From positions 1-53,384 of the IMG/VR virus record IMGVR_UViG_3300043451_000038: a DNA stretch of 53,384 nucleotides; one strand, 5' to 3'. Shown piece by piece: positions 39,921 through 50,232 of this stretch (positions within the stretch are counted from its first letter, which is position 1; each line of letters opens with the position of its first letter). A program made the position numbers and the translations under genes. Below the pieces are notes generated by a model that worked only from the letters and a program-made list of their open reading frames with translations, ran no database searches and was not told the DNA's origin. This stretch comes from a virus. Its lineage: Duplodnaviria > Caudoviricetes.

Positions 39921-40387
39921 TTTTCAATAAAATTAAAGAACTAAAAGACCAAGGCAAGACCATTGGCATTACATTCTCTACATTCGATATGCTACACGCT
40001 GGCCATATCGCTATGTTGAGCGAAGCTAAGAATCATTGTGACTACTTAATCGCTGGCTTACAAACAGACCCAACGATTGATCGTCCTGATACTAAGAACA
40101 AACCTATTCAGTCGGTAGTAGAGCGCCAGATTCAACTAAGTGCTTGCCGCTTTGTTGATGAAATCGTCGTTTATCAAACTGAGCAAGACCTACGAGACTT
40201 GATTCTTATTCTACCGCTAGATGTTCGCATCCTAGGCGTAGAGTATCAGAGTCAAGATTTCTCAGGCCGTAAAGAGTGTACCGACCGTAATATCAAGTGT
40301 ATCTTCAACAGTCGTGACCATTCATTCTCTTCTTCAAGTCTACGCAAACGTGTGGCAGAAGCAGAACAAACTAAAAAGACTAAATGA
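39917..40387 (+). CDS. Cytidylyltransferase (glycerol-3-phosphate CT / TagD-like)
   Basis: TFDMLHAGH (HxGH), DYLIAGL, ER...VDE, R....SSS.LR. Confidence 0.85.
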   Translation: MIFNKIKELKDQGKTIGITFSTFDMLHAGHIAMLSEAKNHCDYLIAGLQTDPTIDRPDTKNKPIQSVVERQIQLSACRFVDEIVVYQTEQDLRDLILILPLDVRILGVEYQSQDFSGRKECTDRNIKCIFNSRDHSFSSSSLRKRVAEAEQTKKTK

Positions 40388-40442
40388 GCTATTTATTTCG
40401 GTAAGCCAGGTATGCCATGGTAACGTTTGGATCTATTCTAAC

Positions 40443-40471
40443 TTGACTGACCATGTAGAATATGCTATACT
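40443..40471 (+). promoter_or_regulatory. sigma70-like promoter
   Basis: TTGACT 40443-40448, 17-nt spacer, TG.TATACT 40466-40471. Confidence 0.7.
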
Positions 40472-40503
40472 GAATGTAACACATTTCATTTAAAAAGGTA
40501 ATT

Positions 40504-41340
40504 ATGATTTTTAATAATATTCTAGAAGCAGATAATAAATCAGTACAAGCTGATCTACTTGCCCGTTGTAACAGCATTAAGCAAATTAACGTTCAACGGA
40601 TTGCCACTCTGGCAAATGACCACTGTAAAGCAACGAACGATCCTAAAAATATTCCTATGCCAGCGGCTTTACAGGCTCTATTCGACCAATGGTACGCTTC
40701 GTTACCAACTGGCACACCGGATTATTCTGTGTACGGTCATGACGACTATATCGCTGAACTATGGGCTTGCTGGAAAGTATACAGTAAGCAACATCTGCGA
40801 AATATTCAAAAGCCAAACTCACTGGTGACACATAGTATTGTTAGTTCTCATATGAATGACAAAGTTATGGTAGACTTAGGTTGTGGCTTTGCTTATACTA
40901 CTGCCGCGATTACTCAGATTTTCCCAGAAGCTAAAGTATACGGTACTAACTTAGACGGTACTCTACAGATGGATGTAGCTAAGCAAATGGCTATAGATTA
41001 TGGGTTTACTATGAGAGGCGATCCTGGTGAGTTGAGCGAAGAGGTCGACTTGGCATTTGCTAGTGAATACTTCGAGCATTTTGATAAACCAATTGACCAT
41101 CTAGATTATGTAGTTCAGACAATCAATCCAAAAGCTATGCTAATTGCCAACGCATTCGGACCAAAAGCAATTGGTCATTTTGATTTCTATGATGTGAAGG
41201 TGAACGATATCATCGGATATGAAAAGACCACAGCCAAAGCAACTGGCAAATTGTTCAATGAGCGTATGAAGCATCACGGATACGTCAAAGTTAAGACAAA
41301 ATTGTGGAATAATCGCCCTGCCTACTGGGTAAAAAAGTAA
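40504..41340 (+). CDS. Class I SAM-dependent methyltransferase
   Basis: MVDLGCGFAY motif I; DLAFASEYFEH. Confidence 0.75.
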   Translation: MIFNNILEADNKSVQADLLARCNSIKQINVQRIATLANDHCKATNDPKNIPMPAALQALFDQWYASLPTGTPDYSVYGHDDYIAELWACWKVYSKQHLRNIQKPNSLVTHSIVSSHMNDKVMVDLGCGFAYTTAAITQIFPEAKVYGTNLDGTLQMDVAKQMAIDYGFTMRGDPGELSEEVDLAFASEYFEHFDKPIDHLDYVVQTINPKAMLIANAFGPKAIGHFDFYDVKVNDIIGYEKTTAKATGKLFNERMKHHGYVKVKTKLWNNRPAYWVKK

Positions 41341-41353
41341 TACTTTAGTGCTA

Positions 41354-41382
41354 TTGACAATAAATTCCATTTATGATACAAT
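41354..41382 (+). promoter_or_regulatory. sigma70-like promoter
   Basis: TTGACA 41354-41359, 17-nt spacer, TG.TACAAT 41377-41382. Confidence 0.75.
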
Positions 41383-41413
41383 ACTTGTATTGAGAATGAA
41401 ATTGGAGAAGTAA

Positions 41414-42367
41414 ATGAGCAAGCGTACCAAAAACTACAGTGATATTGTTGAACTGGTAAATCAGGGAAAAGTCAGACCAGAGAATAGGAATTCAGAAGCT
41501 GGAATTTCTATTCACTTGTTTAATGATAAATGCGTTGCCAATGGTTACTCTCCTGATTTTTATTTAAACAAAGAAAATACCAAGGGCGTTAGTTCTATAA
41601 ACAATTATAGTGTTCGTGGGAAAAAAATTATTTCTCCAGTGGAACTCACGGCTAAAGACAAACAATTACGAGCAGATATCAATATCTATTCACTGAGTAC
41701 TGAGCGCCAAAATGCTCTACTCGAGGAAATGTCAGCCAAAAATTTCTCATATGAACATACTGGCGAAACTAAAGGTAAGGGTAGTGACAAGGGTAAGTGT
41801 CGTATTAAGTGTAAAGACCTGGATCAATTCTTCGAAATTGTTGATGCTGTTGCTAACATTGACGAGTTGGTAGCAAAAAGTTCTGGCGGTGGAGTTCGCA
41901 TTGCCACGCAACTGTGTGAACTTTCGGAAGCTGATGAAAATCATTTCTTGTCTACAGCCGCAACATATAAGGTTGCGATTGAAACAAAGAATCAACGACT
42001 CTTGAATAACTTCCGGACACTGCTCGGCGCTGACAGCATCGATCATATGATTACTAAAGGTTGGTCTGACGAATACAAAACGCTCTGTCACGATGACGAG
42101 AAGCAAGAAAAATCACGCCGTGAACACGTAGTGCCATGTGTTCGTATTCATAATCGTGTGATTGAAATGTTCCAGTCCGGTTCAACTATTGAAGAAGTCG
42201 CTGAGTTTATCGAAAAGCATTTGGTTATTGTTATGATATCCGACCGTCAACGTATTCATGTTGACAATACCCTCAGTCTCCGTGATAGTATGCCTGAGAA
42301 TTGGACCTGGGGTGATGATATCTACGCTAGATTGACTGCGGCTAGTATTACTTGGCAAAAAATCTAA
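41414..42367 (+). CDS. Hypothetical protein with possible C-terminal His-Me-finger-like domain
   Basis: 317 aa; GGAG RBS; RREHVVP...L..SMP..W..GD..YARL. Confidence 0.6.
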   Translation: MSKRTKNYSDIVELVNQGKVRPENRNSEAGISIHLFNDKCVANGYSPDFYLNKENTKGVSSINNYSVRGKKIISPVELTAKDKQLRADINIYSLSTERQNALLEEMSAKNFSYEHTGETKGKGSDKGKCRIKCKDLDQFFEIVDAVANIDELVAKSSGGGVRIATQLCELSEADENHFLSTAATYKVAIETKNQRLLNNFRTLLGADSIDHMITKGWSDEYKTLCHDDEKQEKSRREHVVPCVRIHNRVIEMFQSGSTIEEVAEFIEKHLVIVMISDRQRIHVDNTLSLRDSMPENWTWGDDIYARLTAASITWQKI

Positions 42368-42400
42368 ATCTACAAGGCTTAGGCCTTGTAGATTATCTTT
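42367..42400. terminator. 12-bp perfect hairpin terminator between convergent genes
   Basis: AATCTACAAGGC-ttag-GCCTTGTAGATT (42367-42394). Confidence 0.85.
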
Positions 42401-42995
42401 TTCCTATAACTTCTTTTAGATTACTTACATATGAATTAAATGCTTGAGCCTTTTCACTGTAGGCAAAAGTTTTAACATCAACGTGATTGATTCGGTTTCT
42501 ATCACTGGAATCCAGGATCATTAGTTCCGTTCTCCAAAACATTTCTGATTCCACGGTATCTTGAATCACAGAAAGTTGTGCTTTTAAGTTATCACGATTT
42601 TTATAACTGAGGTACTTGTGAATGTATCGTTCGCCTCGAATCTCATCTCCTCCAGTTTTAACACCAGATCCAATTACATTGGTGCCCTGGGGGATAATGT
42701 CACCTAACTTTTTATTGAGGTCTTCCATCTCACTGGCAGCCTTCTCTCGCTCATTGCCATATGCTCGATTGGATGCTCTAGGATCTGAGGTTCTTAATCT
42801 CAATTCAATAGCTCTTTTTAAATTTTCTAGACCAGGACGAGATTCTATGTTTGCTTTGAACTGTAATAATTCCTTTGTGCCATATCTGCCAGCCTGAATT
42901 TTAGCAATTTCGTCTTCTTCTCTGCCTTCGAATATACTTACTGATTCTGATAAATCTTGAATAATATCAAGATATTTTCTAAAAATGTTACCCAT
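42393..42995 (-). CDS. Hypothetical protein, probably late/virion-internal
   Basis: GAGAGGA RBS before ATG 42995; TAAATA on the minus strand at 43019-43024; begins MGNIFRKYLDIIQDLSES. Confidence 0.7.
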   Translation of the reverse strand: MGNIFRKYLDIIQDLSESVSIFEGREEDEIAKIQAGRYGTKELLQFKANIESRPGLENLKRAIELRLRTSDPRASNRAYGNEREKAASEMEDLNKKLGDIIPQGTNVIGSGVKTGGDEIRGERYIHKYLSYKNRDNLKAQLSVIQDTVESEMFWRTELMILDSSDRNRINHVDVKTFAYSEKAQAFNSYVSNLKEVIGKR

Positions 42996-43036
42996 GGATA
43001 ATCCTCTCTTGTATAAACTATTTATCATTTTCAACT

Positions 43037-43076
43037 CTCCAATAACTATTGACATCTAAGAACTTTGTGGTATAAT
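43037..43076 (+). promoter_or_regulatory. sigma70 consensus promoter with TCCAATA box
   Basis: TTGACA 43049-43054, 16-nt spacer, TG.TATAAT 43071-43076; ATG 7 nt downstream. Confidence 0.8.
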
Positions 43077-43083
43077 AGAACAC

Positions 43084-44118
43084 ATGACTGCCCATACTAC
43101 ACCCAAAATTGGTTTCGCTTGTAAATGGATCGACCATCCCCATCAGGTGAATGGCGTCGGTGCTAAAGACGATGCTAAAAAATACAACACGGGCACTACT
43201 ACAGTTGCCTGGCTAAATAGACAAAGCAAAGACGTTGCTGAAGAAAAGCTATGGTCAATTATGAAGGCCAACTTAGAAGCGGTGCGTATGCTGGTAGATC
43301 GTGTAGGAGACCTCCCCCTTGCTCAACGTATGCTTAGACTTAGCAGTGATATTCTTCCTGTGTACACTCATCGGGACTGGAGTTATTTTTATCAGCGTTC
43401 TGACGTTCGAGCTTTCCTCGGAGCTAACTTTGCGAGAGTGGGTGATATTGGACGCAACAAGCAAGTACGCCTGTCTTTTCACCCTGGGCAGTTTTGTGTG
43501 TTGGCTAGCGATAATCCTGGTATCGTTGCTAATTCTATAGAAGAGTTTGAGTATCACGTAGACATGGCTCGTATGATGGGCTATGGCAAAACATTTCAGG
43601 ATTTCAAAATCAATGTTCATATCTCAGGTAAACAAGGTCCGCAAGGTGTTATCCGAGCTTTATCTCGCATGTCACCAGAAGCACGAAACACAATCACAAT
43701 CGAGAACGAAGAAAACGCCTGGGGCATTGACTCAGCAATCGAACTCGCAGACCATTGTGCCCTTGTACTCGACATACACCATCACTGGTGCCGTGAAGGT
43801 ACATACATTCAGCCCACCGACGATAGATATAAGCGTGTGATTGATTCATGGCGCGGCGTTCGTCCTGTGCTACACTACTCATACAGTCGTGATGAACATC
43901 TGCCTGTTGACTTCAAGCATGATGCTCTACCTGATATGAAGATTCTTCTTGAAAGTGGTCACAAGAAGCAGAAGCTACGTGCTCACTCTGACTTCTACCC
44001 TAACAAGGCAGCCAACGACTATGCTCTATCATTCTTAGAACATAGCGATATCATGTGCGAATCAAAAGGCAAGAACCTTGCCTCACAAGCATTGTATGAA
44101 AGTTTAGGAGTAAAATGA
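43084..44118 (+). CDS. uvsE: UV-damage endonuclease (UvsE/UvdE)
   Basis: IGFAC, RLSSD..P, RLSFHPGQF.VLAS, NVH, TIEN, LDIHH, AHSD, DIMCESK.K. Confidence 0.92.
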   Translation: MTAHTTPKIGFACKWIDHPHQVNGVGAKDDAKKYNTGTTTVAWLNRQSKDVAEEKLWSIMKANLEAVRMLVDRVGDLPLAQRMLRLSSDILPVYTHRDWSYFYQRSDVRAFLGANFARVGDIGRNKQVRLSFHPGQFCVLASDNPGIVANSIEEFEYHVDMARMMGYGKTFQDFKINVHISGKQGPQGVIRALSRMSPEARNTITIENEENAWGIDSAIELADHCALVLDIHHHWCREGTYIQPTDDRYKRVIDSWRGVRPVLHYSYSRDEHLPVDFKHDALPDMKILLESGHKKQKLRAHSDFYPNKAANDYALSFLEHSDIMCESKGKNLASQALYESLGVK

Positions 44119-44207
44119 TGGCATGGATTGGCGTGATACTATTGTTATTTCTGGGTCACCTTGGCTGGGCATTGTTTTTGTCGTTTCTTATCTTGATGGT
44201 TGAATGA
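44115..44207 (+). CDS. 30-aa hydrophobic membrane peptide
   Basis: MMAWIGVILLLFLGHLGWALFLSFLILMVE; AGGAG RBS; ATGA overlaps at both ends. Confidence 0.6.
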   Translation: MMAWIGVILLLFLGHLGWALFLSFLILMVE

Positions 44208-44458
44208 CTGTAGATATTGATGAGGGCAGAGTATACGGCAGTAGGTACTATTGTGCCAAGCCTGTATTCGACCCCTCTATTCATTACTTTGGTCATAATC
44301 AAGAGTGGGACAAGATGATTGGTTGGTGTGTAGAAACATTTGGCGCTACCGCACCTGATGGTGTATGGACACCCAATATGCGATGGTATGTAAACAATGC
44401 TAAGTTCTGGTTCAGAAACGACAGCGACTTGAATTTATTTTTATTGAGGTGGGCATGA
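44204..44458 (+). CDS. LRW-array protein 1 (ends FLLRWA)
   Basis: ORF track; internal WCVETFG. Confidence 0.8.
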   Translation: MTVDIDEGRVYGSRYYCAKPVFDPSIHYFGHNQEWDKMIGWCVETFGATAPDGVWTPNMRWYVNNAKFWFRNDSDLNLFLLRWA

Positions 44459-44706
44459 AGCGATACAAAGGTCATCTATACGAGACTGTTGAAGATTGGC
44501 ATGCGGTTGTTATCCAGTCTCCTAAAGATTTCTATGATAAGATTATTTATTTGCCGTCTTGGTTGTCCGAGCATTGCCCTGGTGCTGATGATGATTATGA
44601 TGCTTATGTGTATGCTGGTGATTCGTTGATGGACGCTAATCATAGAAGCATCTACTTCTTTAGAGATGAAACGGTCGCTGTATTATTCGCATTGAGGTGG
44701 GCATGA
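44455..44706 (+). CDS. LRW-array protein 2 (ends FALRWA)
   Basis: ATG within the ATGA junction. Confidence 0.8.
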   Translation: MKRYKGHLYETVEDWHAVVIQSPKDFYDKIIYLPSWLSEHCPGADDDYDAYVYAGDSLMDANHRSIYFFRDETVAVLFALRWA

Positions 44707-44945
44707 ACTTACAAGCAGTAATAAAAATGGTACAGAAACAGTATCGCCATGAGGGCCCTGATACGGGGTTCTTAACGGGTACTGAGCGTTATGTTTCTGG
44801 CAATCCAAAAATCGACTCACACTTACATTACCTAGAAACCAATTACGGCTTGCGTGTACACTTGAGTCACGATTACGGCCAGATTGAACGATACGAAATC
44901 ATTGATGATAACTTATATACCATCTTCTTACTCAAGTGGTCATGA
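44703..44945 (+). CDS. LRW-array protein 3 (ends FLLKWS)
   Basis: ATG within the ATGA junction. Confidence 0.75.
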   Translation: MNLQAVIKMVQKQYRHEGPDTGFLTGTERYVSGNPKIDSHLHYLETNYGLRVHLSHDYGQIERYEIIDDNLYTIFLLKWS

Positions 44946-45226
44946 AGATACTTTGGAACAGAAGCATTGGTGACAACAAGAGGTACAGAAAGTTGAAAGA
45001 CAACGTGGAATACACAATCATCGAAGACGGCGCCGACTGTTACCCATGGACTGAAACGTTCATATGGTGGCCAACAAAGTCGGTCATGGGTACGCCATTG
45101 TTCTGGGTAAAAGCATATAAGCGTAGAGTGTGGATCATGTGGGGCACAGGCTTTCACATGGAGCCACATGTACAGTATGCTACTGCTTTTGACTTGTTAG
45201 TGTATCAATCAAAGACGTTGAGATAG
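44942..45226 (+). CDS. Trp-rich small protein, second array family
   Basis: WTETFIWWPTK...G..LFW.KAY; similar to 47003-47263. Confidence 0.7.
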   Translation: MKILWNRSIGDNKRYRKLKDNVEYTIIEDGADCYPWTETFIWWPTKSVMGTPLFWVKAYKRRVWIMWGTGFHMEPHVQYATAFDLLVYQSKTLR

Positions 45227-45228
45227 CA

Positions 45229-45411
45229 GTGAGAGAAACACTTGTTATCACTGACCGCATCACATGGTGGGAACGCTGTGAATGGATCAAAGCAAACTGT
45301 CCTGATGCTCAAGATTGGACGAATTGGGACTTGTGGCAACTAGGTCAAGATGATATAATATACAACGTCCGTGAATGTGACGCAACGATTTATTATTTGA
45401 GGTGGGCATGA
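45229..45411 (+). CDS. LRW-array protein 4 (ends YYLRWA)
   Basis: GTG start; WIKANCP. Confidence 0.75.
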   Translation: MRETLVITDRITWWERCEWIKANCPDAQDWTNWDLWQLGQDDIIYNVRECDATIYYLRWA

Positions 45412-45593
45412 AAAAGCATAAAATTCCAAGAGCAACACCAGAAGACATGGAACGCCTAGAGCGTGAAGCAAAACGCTACAAGCGTGAGCGCAGTCGACCT
45501 TATCCTGATCTTGCTGAGTTCGATGGCGATGACAGAAAAGAAATCAAGCGTGAGTTAGGTTACTCACGTGTAGGTATGTGGGGCCGCCGTTGA
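45408..45593 (+). CDS. Small charged hypothetical protein
   Basis: ATG within the junction. Confidence 0.65.
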   Translation: MKKHKIPRATPEDMERLEREAKRYKRERSRPYPDLAEFDGDDRKEIKRELGYSRVGMWGRR

Positions 45594-45841
45594 CACCGCT
45601 GCCAGGCACAAAAGTTTTTGCTGAGCGACATGGCTTGAAACTAGTCGGCGATGCTCGTGATATCATGGTACCTAACAAGTATCAGAGTGAAGTGCTACGC
45701 TGGTGCGCAGAGAACGGCATAGTAGTAGAAGTATATGCTCGTGACTCTAGTGATGCTATGGCACAACGACTATTCAATGTCAACTTATGGCGAGTAAAAG
45801 ATGAAGCACACAGAACCTTATTCATATTGAGGTGGGCATGA
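45590..45841 (+). CDS. LRW-array protein 5 (ends FILRWA)
   Basis: TTG start overlapping the upstream TGA (or GTG 45578); WCAENG. Confidence 0.75.
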   Translation: MTPLPGTKVFAERHGLKLVGDARDIMVPNKYQSEVLRWCAENGIVVEVYARDSSDAMAQRLFNVNLWRVKDEAHRTLFILRWA

Positions 45842-46044
45842 GCAGTAAAGAAGAGCAAGAGAACTTAGTTAGAATGTTAAAAGAACAGCCTTTATTATCA
45901 GAGCGCCCTTTCTGGTGTAGCATTGGGTTTCACAAGTGGCAACGATGGAATGAACCGCGCCGGTCACCATCAAGCATTTATATTCGTCAATCTCGTTACT
46001 GTGATGCTTGTAATATATACGATGAGCGAAAGACGCAGGAATGA
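45838..46044 (+). CDS. Small putative Zn-binding protein
   Basis: CSIGFHKW...CDAC. Confidence 0.65.
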   Translation: MSSKEEQENLVRMLKEQPLLSERPFWCSIGFHKWQRWNEPRRSPSSIYIRQSRYCDACNIYDERKTQE

Positions 46045-46391
46045 AATCGATATTTGATTGGATAAAAACAAAATACAAGGGCAAAATAGAGATCGAACGT
46101 GTGCCTCTGCCAGGTGAGTCTGATAGTTATTTCACATTCACAGAAATAGAAGGTAGCAGAAAATTAGGAATGCTCAACTACAAAGTAGTTAATAATCAGA
46201 ACGAGTGTGTGCTGTATGCTGGCAATCACATTGCTGTTGATGTTAGAATTCGTGATGTATCTCCGTGGGTAGAAGCACAAGATGTGTCAATGTGGAAGTA
46301 CGCAGAAGAAGATGATGGTTGCCACGTGAGCTATATTCGGTATATAATATCGGAAGAACTTTATACTTTATTGGTGCTGAGATGGACGTAA
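46041..46391 (+). CDS. LRW-array protein 6 (ends SEELYTLLVLRWT)
   Basis: ORF track; ATGA overlap. Confidence 0.75.
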   Translation: MKSIFDWIKTKYKGKIEIERVPLPGESDSYFTFTEIEGSRKLGMLNYKVVNNQNECVLYAGNHIAVDVRIRDVSPWVEAQDVSMWKYAEEDDGCHVSYIRYIISEELYTLLVLRWT

Positions 46392-46597
46392 TGATATTAG
46401 AAAGTGCCATGGTAGATGGCACAAAATGGCACACAGTCAGTTGTACTCGGCAAGCTAGTATCTGGTTCAGACAGCAATTCGCCGAGCTAGAAGATATCGA
46501 CTGGCATCAAAACATCGATCAAAACTGGATGGTCAACTTTAATGTATTCGATATGAGCGAAGAACTGTACACATTGTTAGTATTGAGGTGGTCATGA
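46391..46597 (+). CDS. LRW-array protein 7 (ends SEELYTLLVLRWS)
   Basis: TAATG coupling; in frame with ORF 46319. Confidence 0.75.
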   Translation: MILESAMVDGTKWHTVSCTRQASIWFRQQFAELEDIDWHQNIDQNWMVNFNVFDMSEELYTLLVLRWS

Positions 46598-46800
46598 AGT
46601 ACTGGAACAAAGATAAACACGTTCGTCAGAGGCATTGGACGAAGGTTACCAGAAAGCCAGGTATTGCTGGCAATCAAGAAATAAAGCGTTGGTGTCAATT
46701 ACAATCAAGTACTGGTAGATTCTACTTCTACTATGGCTCTAATAGTTGGTGGTTTGAACATGACGCAGACGCTACGTTATTTGTTTTACGGTGGTCATAA
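46594..46800 (+). CDS. LRW-array protein 8 (ends FVLRWS)
   Basis: ATG within the junction; WCQ...WWFEHDADATLF. Confidence 0.8.
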   Translation: MKYWNKDKHVRQRHWTKVTRKPGIAGNQEIKRWCQLQSSTGRFYFYYGSNSWWFEHDADATLFVLRWS

Positions 46801-47006
46801 TGCCTAGAATACTAAACAAAAAGTATTGGCCATATGAAATCGAGTTGCCTAAACTAGACAAGGCCAACGAGATGGAAACATTCAAAGCCCGCAGAAAATG
46901 GTTAAAAGAAAATTGCCAAAGCGAGAAGGACTATGTTATAATAGGCGATAGATATGTGTTCAAGCATGAGTTTGAAGCAACACTATTCGCATTAAGGTGG
47001 GCATGA
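46800..47006 (+). CDS. LRW-array protein 9 (ends FALRWA)
   Basis: TAATG coupling; WLKENC...YVFKHEFEATLF. Confidence 0.8.
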   Translation: MPRILNKKYWPYEIELPKLDKANEMETFKARRKWLKENCQSEKDYVIIGDRYVFKHEFEATLFALRWA

Positions 47007-47263
47007 CATATTGGTATGAACAATACAAGGCTAGTGGTGACATAATTCACTTCTCTAGTTTTTACGGTAGAGCGCATTGGGAAACAGTATTCGTCATACT
47101 ACCCAAGCGATGTAATCTAACTGGCAAGTGGCTATGGTTACAATGGGCGGAGCGTGGCACTTCAATATGGACAGGTCCTGGTGATCCTGTCGTCGAGCAT
47201 AAGTATCATCACCCCAGATATCACTTACTATGGCTAATAACTTATGAACATACTAAATTTTAA
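47003..47263 (+). CDS. Trp-rich small protein, second array family
   Basis: WETVFVILPKRC.LTGKWLWLQWA. Confidence 0.7.
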   Translation: MTYWYEQYKASGDIIHFSSFYGRAHWETVFVILPKRCNLTGKWLWLQWAERGTSIWTGPGDPVVEHKYHHPRYHLLWLITYEHTKF

Positions 47264-47483
47264 ACACTTACAAGAAGTAGGCGAAGGCTACATCGAACAT
47301 TTACGGTTCGGGCTATGGGTTGCCGGCATACAATTCTTACTAGCAGTCATGGGTACAATTCATGCTATCTTGCCCTTCTTATTTGCTAGATGGCCAGAGA
47401 AACTGACTAACTATCTAGTAACAGAATCAAGACGCAGAACTAGCAAGGTTCGCAAATCACTAAAGAGCAAAAATGTCTACTAA
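47244..47483 (+). CDS. Small membrane-associated hypothetical protein
   Basis: HL.EVGE.Y.EH..F...IHA..PFLF with a hydrophobic stretch. Confidence 0.65.
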   Translation: MNILNFKHLQEVGEGYIEHLRFGLWVAGIQFLLAVMGTIHAILPFLFARWPEKLTNYLVTESRRRTSKVRKSLKSKNVY

Positions 47484-47937: not shown

Positions 47938-48343
47938 TAAACTAAAAAACTTGTTCAAGAAAAAAGAACAACCAAAGCAAGAAGCGCCTAAGAAGCGTGA
48001 GAAAAAAGTTGAGCCAACTGAGAAAGAAAAAGCAACTGCCGCAGGTGAGCCGTATATCTCGATTCTAAAGGTAGATGTTGATCCAAACAATATCAACAGT
48101 GGCTCATTTGAATTGGATTGGAATGACAAGTTCGTGGCAAACCTAGTCCGAGCAGGATATCAAATCAAGCCTGACGAAGAGGATAGCACTATCGTGGACA
48201 GATGGTTCCAAACTGTTTGTCGCAACATCGCACTTGAGGTCTACGAACAACAAAATGCTGACCTTACTGCCAGAGCATATGATGATGTTAAACCACCATC
48301 TACGAGAAAAGATTTAGGAAACGGAAGAACGGAGATTAGTTAA
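47930..48343 (+). CDS. Hypothetical protein
   Basis: 137-aa ORF with GAGG RBS. Confidence 0.75.
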   Translation: MFDKLKNLFKKKEQPKQEAPKKREKKVEPTEKEKATAAGEPYISILKVDVDPNNINSGSFELDWNDKFVANLVRAGYQIKPDEEDSTIVDRWFQTVCRNIALEVYEQQNADLTARAYDDVKPPSTRKDLGNGRTEIS

Positions 48344-48795
48344 TGTTTAGTCACTTATTTGAAAATGAAGATGGGTCTTCTTTTATTCAGCATATTGAAT
48401 ACAATAAGAATGGTAACCCAATTTGTGTAATAGAAGATTGTTATAATTCTGCCCATAATAAAGGCAAGAATCATGGCGGATATCTTCTCGTATGTAAGGC
48501 ACATTACAAGGGGGAAAAGGGAGCAAACGCAATCAAGGGCGGTTACAAAGCAAAGAAGAAAAGCTATTGCGAAAACATGGACGGTAGGCTAGGCTTTGAA
48601 TGTTCTGCGGAAATTCACGACGATAGTATGCTGACAGTAGATCATATCGACGAAGATCACTATAACAATGAAGACAAAAATCTTCATACCCTATGCCATA
48701 ATTGTCATAATTATAAGACTAGATTCTACGGAAGAGTCAAATCTTACGATGAAATGACTAAGATTATGGATAAAAATAGAAAGAAATTCAAATAA
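48343..48795 (+). CDS. HNH endonuclease
   Basis: LTVDHIDEDHYNN...NLHTLCHNCHNYKT; AT-rich. Confidence 0.85.
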   Translation: MFSHLFENEDGSSFIQHIEYNKNGNPICVIEDCYNSAHNKGKNHGGYLLVCKAHYKGEKGANAIKGGYKAKKKSYCENMDGRLGFECSAEIHDDSMLTVDHIDEDHYNNEDKNLHTLCHNCHNYKTRFYGRVKSYDEMTKIMDKNRKKFK

Positions 48796-48801
48796 AAACA
48801 C

Positions 48802-48830
48802 TTGACATTCTGGCAGAAATAGATTAAAAT
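48802..48830 (+). promoter_or_regulatory. sigma70-like promoter
   Basis: TTGACA 48802-48807, 17-nt spacer, TAAAAT 48825-48830. Confidence 0.7.
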
Positions 48831-48857
48831 ATCAGCATATTAAAGGACAAATTCTAA

Positions 48858-50062: not shown

Positions 50063-50232
50063 TGAACGAACGAATTAAAGAACTTGCTGAACAGGCTGGC
50101 ATTTCATATCTCAGTAGTGTCCATCCAGATATGTGGGAAAAGTTCGCCGAGATGATTGTTCGAAAATGTGCCAGTAAAGTTACTTGTAATGAAGCATTGA
50201 ATATTTTAGAACATTTCGGAGTTGAAGAATGA
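50062..50232 (+). CDS. Small hypothetical protein (56 aa, MNERIKELAEQAG...)
   Basis: Translated by hand; coupled to neighbours at both ends. Confidence 0.65.
   Translation: MNERIKELAEQAGISYLSSVHPDMWEKFAEMIVRKCASKVTCNEALNILEHFGVEE

Follow-up and report, generated by a model that had tools for sequence, protein, structure and literature searches.

Shared 3' ends of a large family of small phage proteins as probable crossover points for whole-gene exchange in jumbo phage arrays

It has long been asked how the many small accessory genes in the hyperplastic regions of phages come and go, and the only well-documented repeat-mediated route known to us is that of the promoter-early stem-loop (PeSL) cassettes of T4-type phages. 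As described in the reports on them, PeSLs consist of a sigma-70 promoter and a terminator stem-loop placed between small, non-essential open reading frames (ORFs) of hyperplastic regions; recombination between the repeats by the general machinery of the phage has been proposed, and mini-circles have been shown (Arbiol et al. 2010, PMC2839356; Comeau et al. 2014, PMC4122927). Here we analyze a 53,384-nt stretch of phage DNA (IMG/VR record IMGVR_UViG_3300043451_000038, positions 1 to 53,384; hereafter, the window) with a tight array of overlapping small genes at 44204-47006, several of which are joined by the 15-nt junction TTGAGGTGGGCATGA. We propose, with a probability of roughly 0.68, that this 15-mer is the shared 3' end of a huge family of small proteins, held constant by translation, and also the crossover point for the exchange of whole genes. 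The system is a new form of a known kind of phage gene shuffling, and the protein family that it brings to light is large and uncharacterised.

The closest known analogue is the shuffling of T4-type phages by PeSLs. In both systems a short expression signal is repeated between small genes, indels between close relatives are bounded by the repeat, and an inserted gene brings its signal with it; the array-bearing phages are also related to T4 in their replication genes. PeSLs in the published accounts are, however, intergenic and transcriptional, a promoter and terminator stem-loop conserved over ~100 bp that the present locus does not have, whereas the junction is 9-15 nt long, coding and translational (a Shine-Dalgarno (SD) sequence plus a start/stop overlap), with no stem-loop. 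A different signal would thus fill the same structural role, in which the close of one coding sequence doubles as the ribosome-binding site and start codon of the next gene. The original prediction had called the array integron-like, which is not borne out. Small, putatively promoterless co-directional genes may be read from one predicted upstream promoter, and whole-gene cassettes are gained and lost at a repeated 3'-end site; the defining features of integrons nevertheless fail, because neither an IntI integrase (in the window or five near-complete relatives) nor an attC-like imperfect palindrome or hairpin was found. Unlike in integrons, the junction repeat is part of a protein together with the ribosome-binding site of the next gene, and most cassettes belong to a single protein family. 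Lambdoid phages have conserved gene-boundary sequences, and tandem arrays of paralogs gain and lose units by unequal crossing-over in conserved segments. In contrast to both, conservation here is confined to the final 4-5 codons, so that no chimeric proteins arise, and the identity of the junctions appears to be kept by translation signals and not by recent common descent. Short conserved sequences at gene boundaries have been proposed to target homologous recombination (PMC3974807, as there described).

Exact copies of the 15-mer lie at 44444, 44692, 45397 and 45827, and copies with one mismatch at 46583 (TTGAGGTGGTCATGA) and 46992 (TTAAGGTGGGCATGA), all on the + strand; by chance 0.04 matches would be expected, and six were reached in 0/100 shuffles. 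These copies had been listed in the original prediction, and its further observations were borne out as well: the 23-nt stretch at 44684-44706 recurs at 46984-47006 with one mismatch, every copy reads Leu-Arg-Trp-Ala/Ser-stop with the ATG of the next gene overlapping the TGA, and AGG is rare in the window (13/501 Arg codons, or 2.6%, in 34 long ORFs, in which TTG makes up 152/989 Leu codons). All copies close small genes (60-116 aa) at the 3' side, and the products finish in ..DAxxFxLRW[A/S/T]. Three further family junctions written with other codons, at 44931 (LKWS), 46377 (LRWT) and 46786 (LRWS), had been missed. The nine family junctions of the window comprise six with an ATGA overlap, two with TAATG, and the one at 44931, which has ATGA with no SD. 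Nine of the 13 small genes, which stand head to tail on the + strand between the UvdE gene and a DUF6356 gene (47244), are paralogs of the family, ending in ..[DE]xxxxTLFxL[RK]W[AST]-stop; no L[RK]Wx-stop end was found outside the array across the 53 kb in six frames. Nearly all 13 genes are joined by ATGA or TAATG, with overlaps of 1-4 nt and no intergenic space. A self-match search gave few off-diagonal hits (58 rows, or 29 pairs), and most of those inspected were repeats unrelated to the family.

Evidence for exchange at the junctions comes from close relatives. Eighty loci were found through the UvdE gene, which served as the anchor; an array lies downstream of it in only two, L007 (UvdE 98% identical) and L008 (74%), and the other 78 were unusable for breakpoints. 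L007, with flanks 94-99% identical to the window, is without window positions 45836-46379 (g8 and g9; gene numbers as in the Table) and 46596-46789 (g11). Each of the four breakpoints (4/4) of these array indels falls in a junction motif, among letters common to the two junctions (TGAG.TGG and GGTGGTCAT), at points that vary within the motif. L008 carries 565 extra nt, comprising two further cassettes, exactly at junction 44692. The two alleles of L007 recur in assembled contigs, a form of data in which rare variants are lost, from four runs of four other studies (X3, X5, X7 and X10): a clean skip 45829>46380 in contigs of X5, X7 and X10, and a clean skip 46586>46790, with nine shared letters, in contigs of X3, X5 and X10; the form seen in the window is also present in X3 and X5. 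Loose ends of contigs join other neighbours at 44707, 45230, 45397 and 46583, and the X3 variant at 45230 is preceded by a family junction. Joints with short sides (21-35 letters), with unknown sequence between them, or in UvdE at 88% likeness were not counted, as they may belong to other organisms, and the low-depth bins 45896-46257 and 46620-46800 were not used as evidence on their own, nor were habitat labels of the runs taken into account. The non-family gene g8 moves with the family gene that follows it and does not break at its own ends. An alignment of arrays, which the original prediction had asked for, has thus been made: indel and replacement breakpoints lie within the junction, and whole genes come and go with coupling kept. 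The duplications that were also foreseen are not evident, recent duplicates being few. These comparisons of aligned sequences place the crossovers in the junction, and in natural populations the polymorphism can be followed down to the single nucleotide.

Breaks of synteny across all fetched loci follow the same pattern. Family junctions make up 0.53% of the sequence, and 62/384 internal ends of high-scoring segment pairs lie within 5 nt of one. Counted as minimum events, synteny breaks at 28/61 opportunities for family junctions vs 6/35 for coupled junctions of other genes within or close to arrays (Fisher p=0.007), and at 30/180 for those far from arrays. One upstream gene can have differing downstream partners, and one downstream gene differing upstream partners; in 19/23 family pairs with a common upstream and a different downstream gene, divergence starts at motif positions 5-17. 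Two single-gene islands of ~190 nt (91-93% identical) end at a junction on either side, beyond which the sequences are unrelated.

Family genes strung in co-directional, putatively coupled arrays of jumbo myophages are subject to a triple constraint, set out below, that places the same 9-15 nt in register at most gene ends, also in the arrays of other phages. We suggest that crossovers at these repeats would then arise through general homologous or short-homology recombination of the RecA/UvsX type, or through replication slippage. Whole genes would be deleted, inserted or exchanged, sometimes with a non-family passenger, leaving frames and couplings intact, and cassette presence/absence polymorphism in natural populations would result. 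A short sequence held constant by translation would for that very reason have become a crossover point. Direct repeats of short length give rise to deletions in T4, and homology that is short or diverged is tolerated by phage recombinases. Pairing of the repeats explains the crossovers in the junction most simply, with homology as their probable cause and a general phage recombinase as the candidate enzyme. A RecA/UvsX-type recombinase is encoded in 5/5 near-complete relatives. A tyrosine integrase (PF00589) was found neither in the window, which is ~15% of the genome, nor in array-bearing relatives that are 97-100% complete (0/5), in a search whose control matched in 14/14 genomes; a resolvase was likewise found in 0/5 near-complete relatives, and neither a hairpin nor a local inverted repeat at any of six junctions. 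A site-specific recombinase is probably not involved.

The junction belongs to a protein family of unusual size. At least 115 stretches of viral contigs contain the exact 15-mer, and among the 142 occurrences listed nearly all are preceded by ..F.F..E.DA..F. and followed by an open frame. A matrix built on residues -24 to -5 only retrieved 503 members in the fetched loci vs 1 in reversed controls, with 438 distinct C-termini (the members referred to below). A profile of 129 diverse members matched 7,758 representatives at E<=1e-3 among 1.84 billion proteins, that is, at least 7,758 clusters at 50% identity, and the domain stands nearly always at the extreme C-terminus. The five near-complete relatives (338-364 kb) carry 7-33 copies apiece, most of them gathered into one or two clusters. 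Identity between gene bodies is 15-30%. AlphaFold models g2 with confidence and puts the conserved motif in the last helix of the fold (Table). Protein-level selection on the C-terminal motif is clear from the sequences: g9 and g10 (46341-46391 and 46547-46597) have the same last 11 residues before the final one, EELYTLLVLRW, with 8/11 codons differing synonymously, which points to old divergence under strong protein-level constraint and not to recent duplication or conversion. The motif tolerates Lys for Arg (56/438 members) and Phe, Tyr or Cys for Trp.

No curated protein library covers this very large family of small proteins. Window members had no match above cut-off in Pfam or PHROGs; among the 129 diverse members, 2 matched Pfam, by stray hits only (Gp23, choline-binding), and at most 3 matched PHROGs, by stray hits to three families, one member each. 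Foldseek gave a best E of 0.23 in the PDB and of 7.5e-3 in BFVD, the latter to uncharacterised proteins of uncultured phages, and neither the ESM Atlas nor 32 homologue names yielded a named relative, 'hypothetical protein' being the only label. A megablast of the array and a tblastn of g1 vs a phage collection gave no match, and distant cultured members were reached by profile search only. Cultured jumbo phages with profile matches are Sinorhizobium phage Phosso (W02), with 39, and Agrobacterium phage Atu_ph07 (W01), with 6, scattered over their genomes; their C-termini keep ..DAMLFKL.., with AGG in 0/9 read. Both could serve as experimental systems for the family proteins. Searches of the literature on the family or the junction found nothing beyond the PeSL papers, which is not proof of absence. 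Two side observations concern the domain context of the family. In the two-domain proteins P0034, P0035, P0038, P0041 and P0146 a family domain runs directly into the next (e.g. ..FALTWAEQKMKYH..), and these appear to be neighbouring cassettes fused by read-through once a stop codon had been lost. One of the 129 aligned members (A4) matches Pfam Gp23, the major capsid protein, at E 1.5e-9, and PHROG 138, a major head protein; an ESM Atlas cluster has a 13% Gp23 label.

Within the motif the codons are far from free. AGG accounts for 293/361 motif Arg codons (5.9-8.7% background in the same loci), TTG for 282/426 motif Leu codons (22-26% background), and TGA for 343/438 member stops. Loci L087-L201 were fetched through the exact 15-mer, and removal of the 96 such copies leaves the AGG and TTG bias unchanged. 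The Arg codon tracks the next start: AGG stands at 133/167 ATGA junctions (ascertained copies removed) and 33/37 TAATG junctions against a 6-9% background, and at 0/19 junctions with the next ATG within AGATGG or CGATGG (12 AGA, 7 CGA). Uncoupled members have AGG in 5/12 (coupled vs uncoupled, Fisher p=0.004), and codon bias is absent at Phe -15 (p=0.40) and Glu -12 (p=0.95). Selection on the nucleotides at synonymous junction sites, as had been predicted, is supported by these counts; the accompanying idea that conservation calls for something beyond SD, start/stop overlap and amino-acid constraint is not. GAGG stands at -9 in 230/376 overlapped family junctions, and the commonest SD words and offsets in 695 non-family overlaps are likewise GAGG at -9 and AGGT at -8; the other genes of the window use AAGG or AGGA 6-7 nt before the ATG. 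An SD of GAGGTG (G-AGG-TG) 9 nt before the ATG forces the otherwise rare AGG together with a Leu codon ending in G, and an ATG overlapping the TGA stop forces a last codon ending in A. On this account three overlapping demands, a Leu-Arg/Lys-Trp-x end, the SD and the ATGA overlap, fix the nucleotides of the junction. An ATGA-type overlap with an internal SD is characteristic of translationally coupled genes, and the array genes are putatively coupled. In DNA folding of six junctions with 23-nt flanks (61 nt) z was +0.43 to +1.85, and 125-199 of 200 shuffles folded as well or better; shuffled sequences thus have more structure than the junctions, in keeping with what initiation regions should show.

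The simplest competitor gives the motif no causal part: illegitimate breaks occur anywhere and only those at gene ends are viable. Such mosaicism through illegitimate recombination and functional selection is an established view for phages, as set out in PMC3974807, and several results agree with it. Non-family coupled junctions break synteny too (28/122 and 12/110), with divergence at positions 0-17 of the same 15-nt frame in 20/36 pairs; the strength of the motif leaves the break rate unchanged; and microhomology indels occur away from the family, for example the 160-nt indel at 50068-50227 against L007, which has a 7-nt flank overlap and lies far from family junctions. Yet family junctions break 2.5-4x more than other coupled junctions, also inside arrays, and clean deletions cross within letters common to both junctions (nine at 46586>46790). 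Two random sites, each precise to 1 nt, are far less likely than pairing of repeats, and g8 would not be expected to travel with the following family gene, with no break at its own ends. We regard a pure selection filter as unlikely. Several points nevertheless weigh against a homology-driven crossover at a translationally conserved junction, and the first is one of principle: with overlapping genes, an exchange can leave both of them whole only if it breaks within the junction, so that position alone cannot tell homology-driven crossovers apart from random breaks that selection has sifted. The crossovers have no more than 8-10 nt of identity, L007 has a hybrid junction with TTA that is in neither window parent, and the two clean skips are alleles common to L007 and several runs, which makes them two events and not many. 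About 3/23 'swap' pairs are diverged orthologues or a 1-nt shift, not swaps. Full GAGGTGG and variant junctions break alike (12/21 vs 8/15, and 4/14 vs 4/11; both p=1, at low power). As to the translational part, AGG in uncoupled members (5/12) lies above a background of 8.7% (p=0.002), codon -5, just before the Leu, has a purine as third base in 365/438 members vs 48% in the background (in the window e.g. 44441-44443), for which SD/anti-SD pairing does not account, and smaller codon biases exist at -6, -9, -10 and -11.

The purine bias at codon -5, together with a TTG over CTG ratio of 3.4:1 at the motif vs 2.2:1 in the background, could instead mean that the block is adapted for shuffling, kept since lineages with exchangeable cassettes fare better, as a recombinase-free integron-like or PeSL-like pool among jumbo phages. 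That the identical 15-mer ends hundreds of otherwise unrelated genes, that single-cassette islands and upstream or downstream genes turn up in differing company, and that two junctions of one locus resemble each other slightly more than junctions of different loci do (8.50 vs 8.13 of 12 nt, permutation p=0.0005) would all fit. But SD, start or stop explains each of the strongly biased sites; codons -15 and -12 show no bias and those at -6 to -11 little, even though recombination would profit from longer identity; the exact 15-mer is found in just 22/364 members after removal of one fetched copy per locus; the break rate is independent of motif type; and cultured relatives keep the family without the block. 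Selection for evolvability would also find it hard to persist in the face of selection that acts directly on translation. We consider an adaptation of the block for shuffling quite improbable. Least probable by far is site-specific recombination, in which an unrecognised recombinase or nuclease, such as the HNH endonuclease encoded 1.3 kb downstream (48343-48795) or a family member, would see the junction as an att-like site. The nucleotide precision of the breakpoints and the nearness of the HNH gene speak for it; against it stand the missing tyrosine and serine recombinases (window and 5/5 near-complete relatives), an array in L007 with no HNH gene, junctions with no inverted repeat or hairpin, and crossover points that vary within the motif.

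Crossover at junctions held constant by translation would, in a stronger form, make the block a coding-embedded universal linker, in which thousands of different small genes close with the same 9-15 nt and these nucleotides also open the gene that follows: any cassette could be moved by the phage's own recombination into the array of any co-infecting family-bearing phage and would arrive coupled. We hold this extension to be possible, though doubtful. If true, the linker would mirror integrons without a recombinase and PeSLs at the level of translation, and freshwater jumbo phages would sustain a shared pool of accessory genes through it.

As a 53-kb piece of an IMG/VR viral contig (CheckV completeness ~15%), the window encodes a clamp loader, a Lon-like protease and a T4-type DNA polymerase. 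The nearest relatives of this polymerase are those of the jumbo myophages Sinorhizobium phage Phosso (50% amino acid identity) and Agrobacterium phage Atu_ph07 (48%). The features of the array and its left flank are listed in the Table.

Table. Features of the small-gene array and its left flank in the window (positions of the window; junction copies follow the gene that they end)
Feature	Position	Strand	Remarks
Sigma-70-like promoter, TTGACA-16-TATAAT with TG	43049..43076	+	12/12 consensus matches; 8 nt upstream of UvdE gene
UvdE UV-endonuclease gene	43084..44118	+	Conserved left flank of array; PF03851, E 3.4e-34; anchor for finding relatives
Mini-ORF MMAWIGVILLLFLGHLGWALFLSFLILMVE	44115..44207	+	30 aa, strongly hydrophobic; ATGA overlap with UvdE stop and with g1 start
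g1	44204..44458	+	Family member, 84 aa, ..LFLLRWA
Junction 1, exact 15-mer	44444..44458	+	Leu-Arg-Trp-Ala-stop, SD GAGGTG and g2 ATG
g2	44455..44706	+	Family member, 83 aa; AlphaFold model beta3-alpha-beta2-alpha, predicted local distance difference test (pLDDT) 96.1
Junction 2, exact 15-mer	44692..44706	+	565-base extra segment of L008 here; X10 contig diverges after 44707
g3	44703..44945	+	Family member, 80 aa, ..IFLLKWS; end junction 44931 CTCAAGTGGTCATGA, Lys, no SD
g4	44942..45226	+	94 aa; degenerate member or non-family
g5	45229..45411	+	Family member, 60 aa; GTG start in window
Junction 3, exact 15-mer	45397..45411	+	Different upstream family gene joined here in X7 contig
g6	45408..45593	+	61 aa, basic; non-family passenger, no Pfam match
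g7	45578..45841	+	Family member, 87 aa from GTG 45578; alternative start TTG 45590 overlaps g6 stop
Junction 4, exact 15-mer	45827..45841	+	Left crossover point of 544-550-nt cassette indel
g8	45838..46044	+	68 aa, Cys-rich non-family passenger; missing with g9 in L007 and X5, X7, X10 contigs
g9	46041..46391	+	Family member, 116 aa, ..LLVLRWT
g9 end junction CTGAGATGGACGTAATG	46377..46393	+	LRWT; right crossover point of 544-550-nt indel
g10	46391..46597	+	Family member, 68 aa, ..LLVLRWS
One-mismatch junction TTGAGGTGGTCATGA	46583..46597	+	Left crossover point of 194-203-nt indel
g11	46594..46800	+	Family member, 68 aa; single-gene cassette missing in L007 and X3, X5, X10 contigs
g11 end junction TTACGGTGGTCATAATG	46786..46802	+	LRWS; right crossover point of 194-203-nt indel
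g12	46800..47006	+	Family member, 68 aa, ..LFALRWA
One-mismatch junction TTAAGGTGGGCATGA	46992..47006	+	
g13	47003..47263	+	86 aa; degenerate member or non-family; final array gene

The promoter-like site upstream of UvdE is the probable promoter of an operon comprising UvdE and the array. Promoter-like sites number 16 vs 12.4 +/- 3.2 expected, and two sites with 11/12 matches lie inside the array. No + strand terminator was found in the array, all 8 terminator-like sites being on the - strand. The mini-ORF between UvdE and g1 may encode a coupled membrane peptide.

Other differences from relatives lie outside the array. The HNH gene is missing in L007, where 116 nt replace window positions 48289-48851, and this segment looks like an insertion of the homing-endonuclease type. 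A 2.7-kb segment of the window with three ORFs (40504-41340, 41414-42367 and, on the - strand, 42393-43055), at 40368-43066, corresponds to 42 nt in L007 and ends just before the promoter-like site at 43049. At the right flank, six letters replace 47249-47482 of the DUF6356 gene (47244-47483) in X5 and X10 contigs, a gene-precise indel at a non-family boundary.

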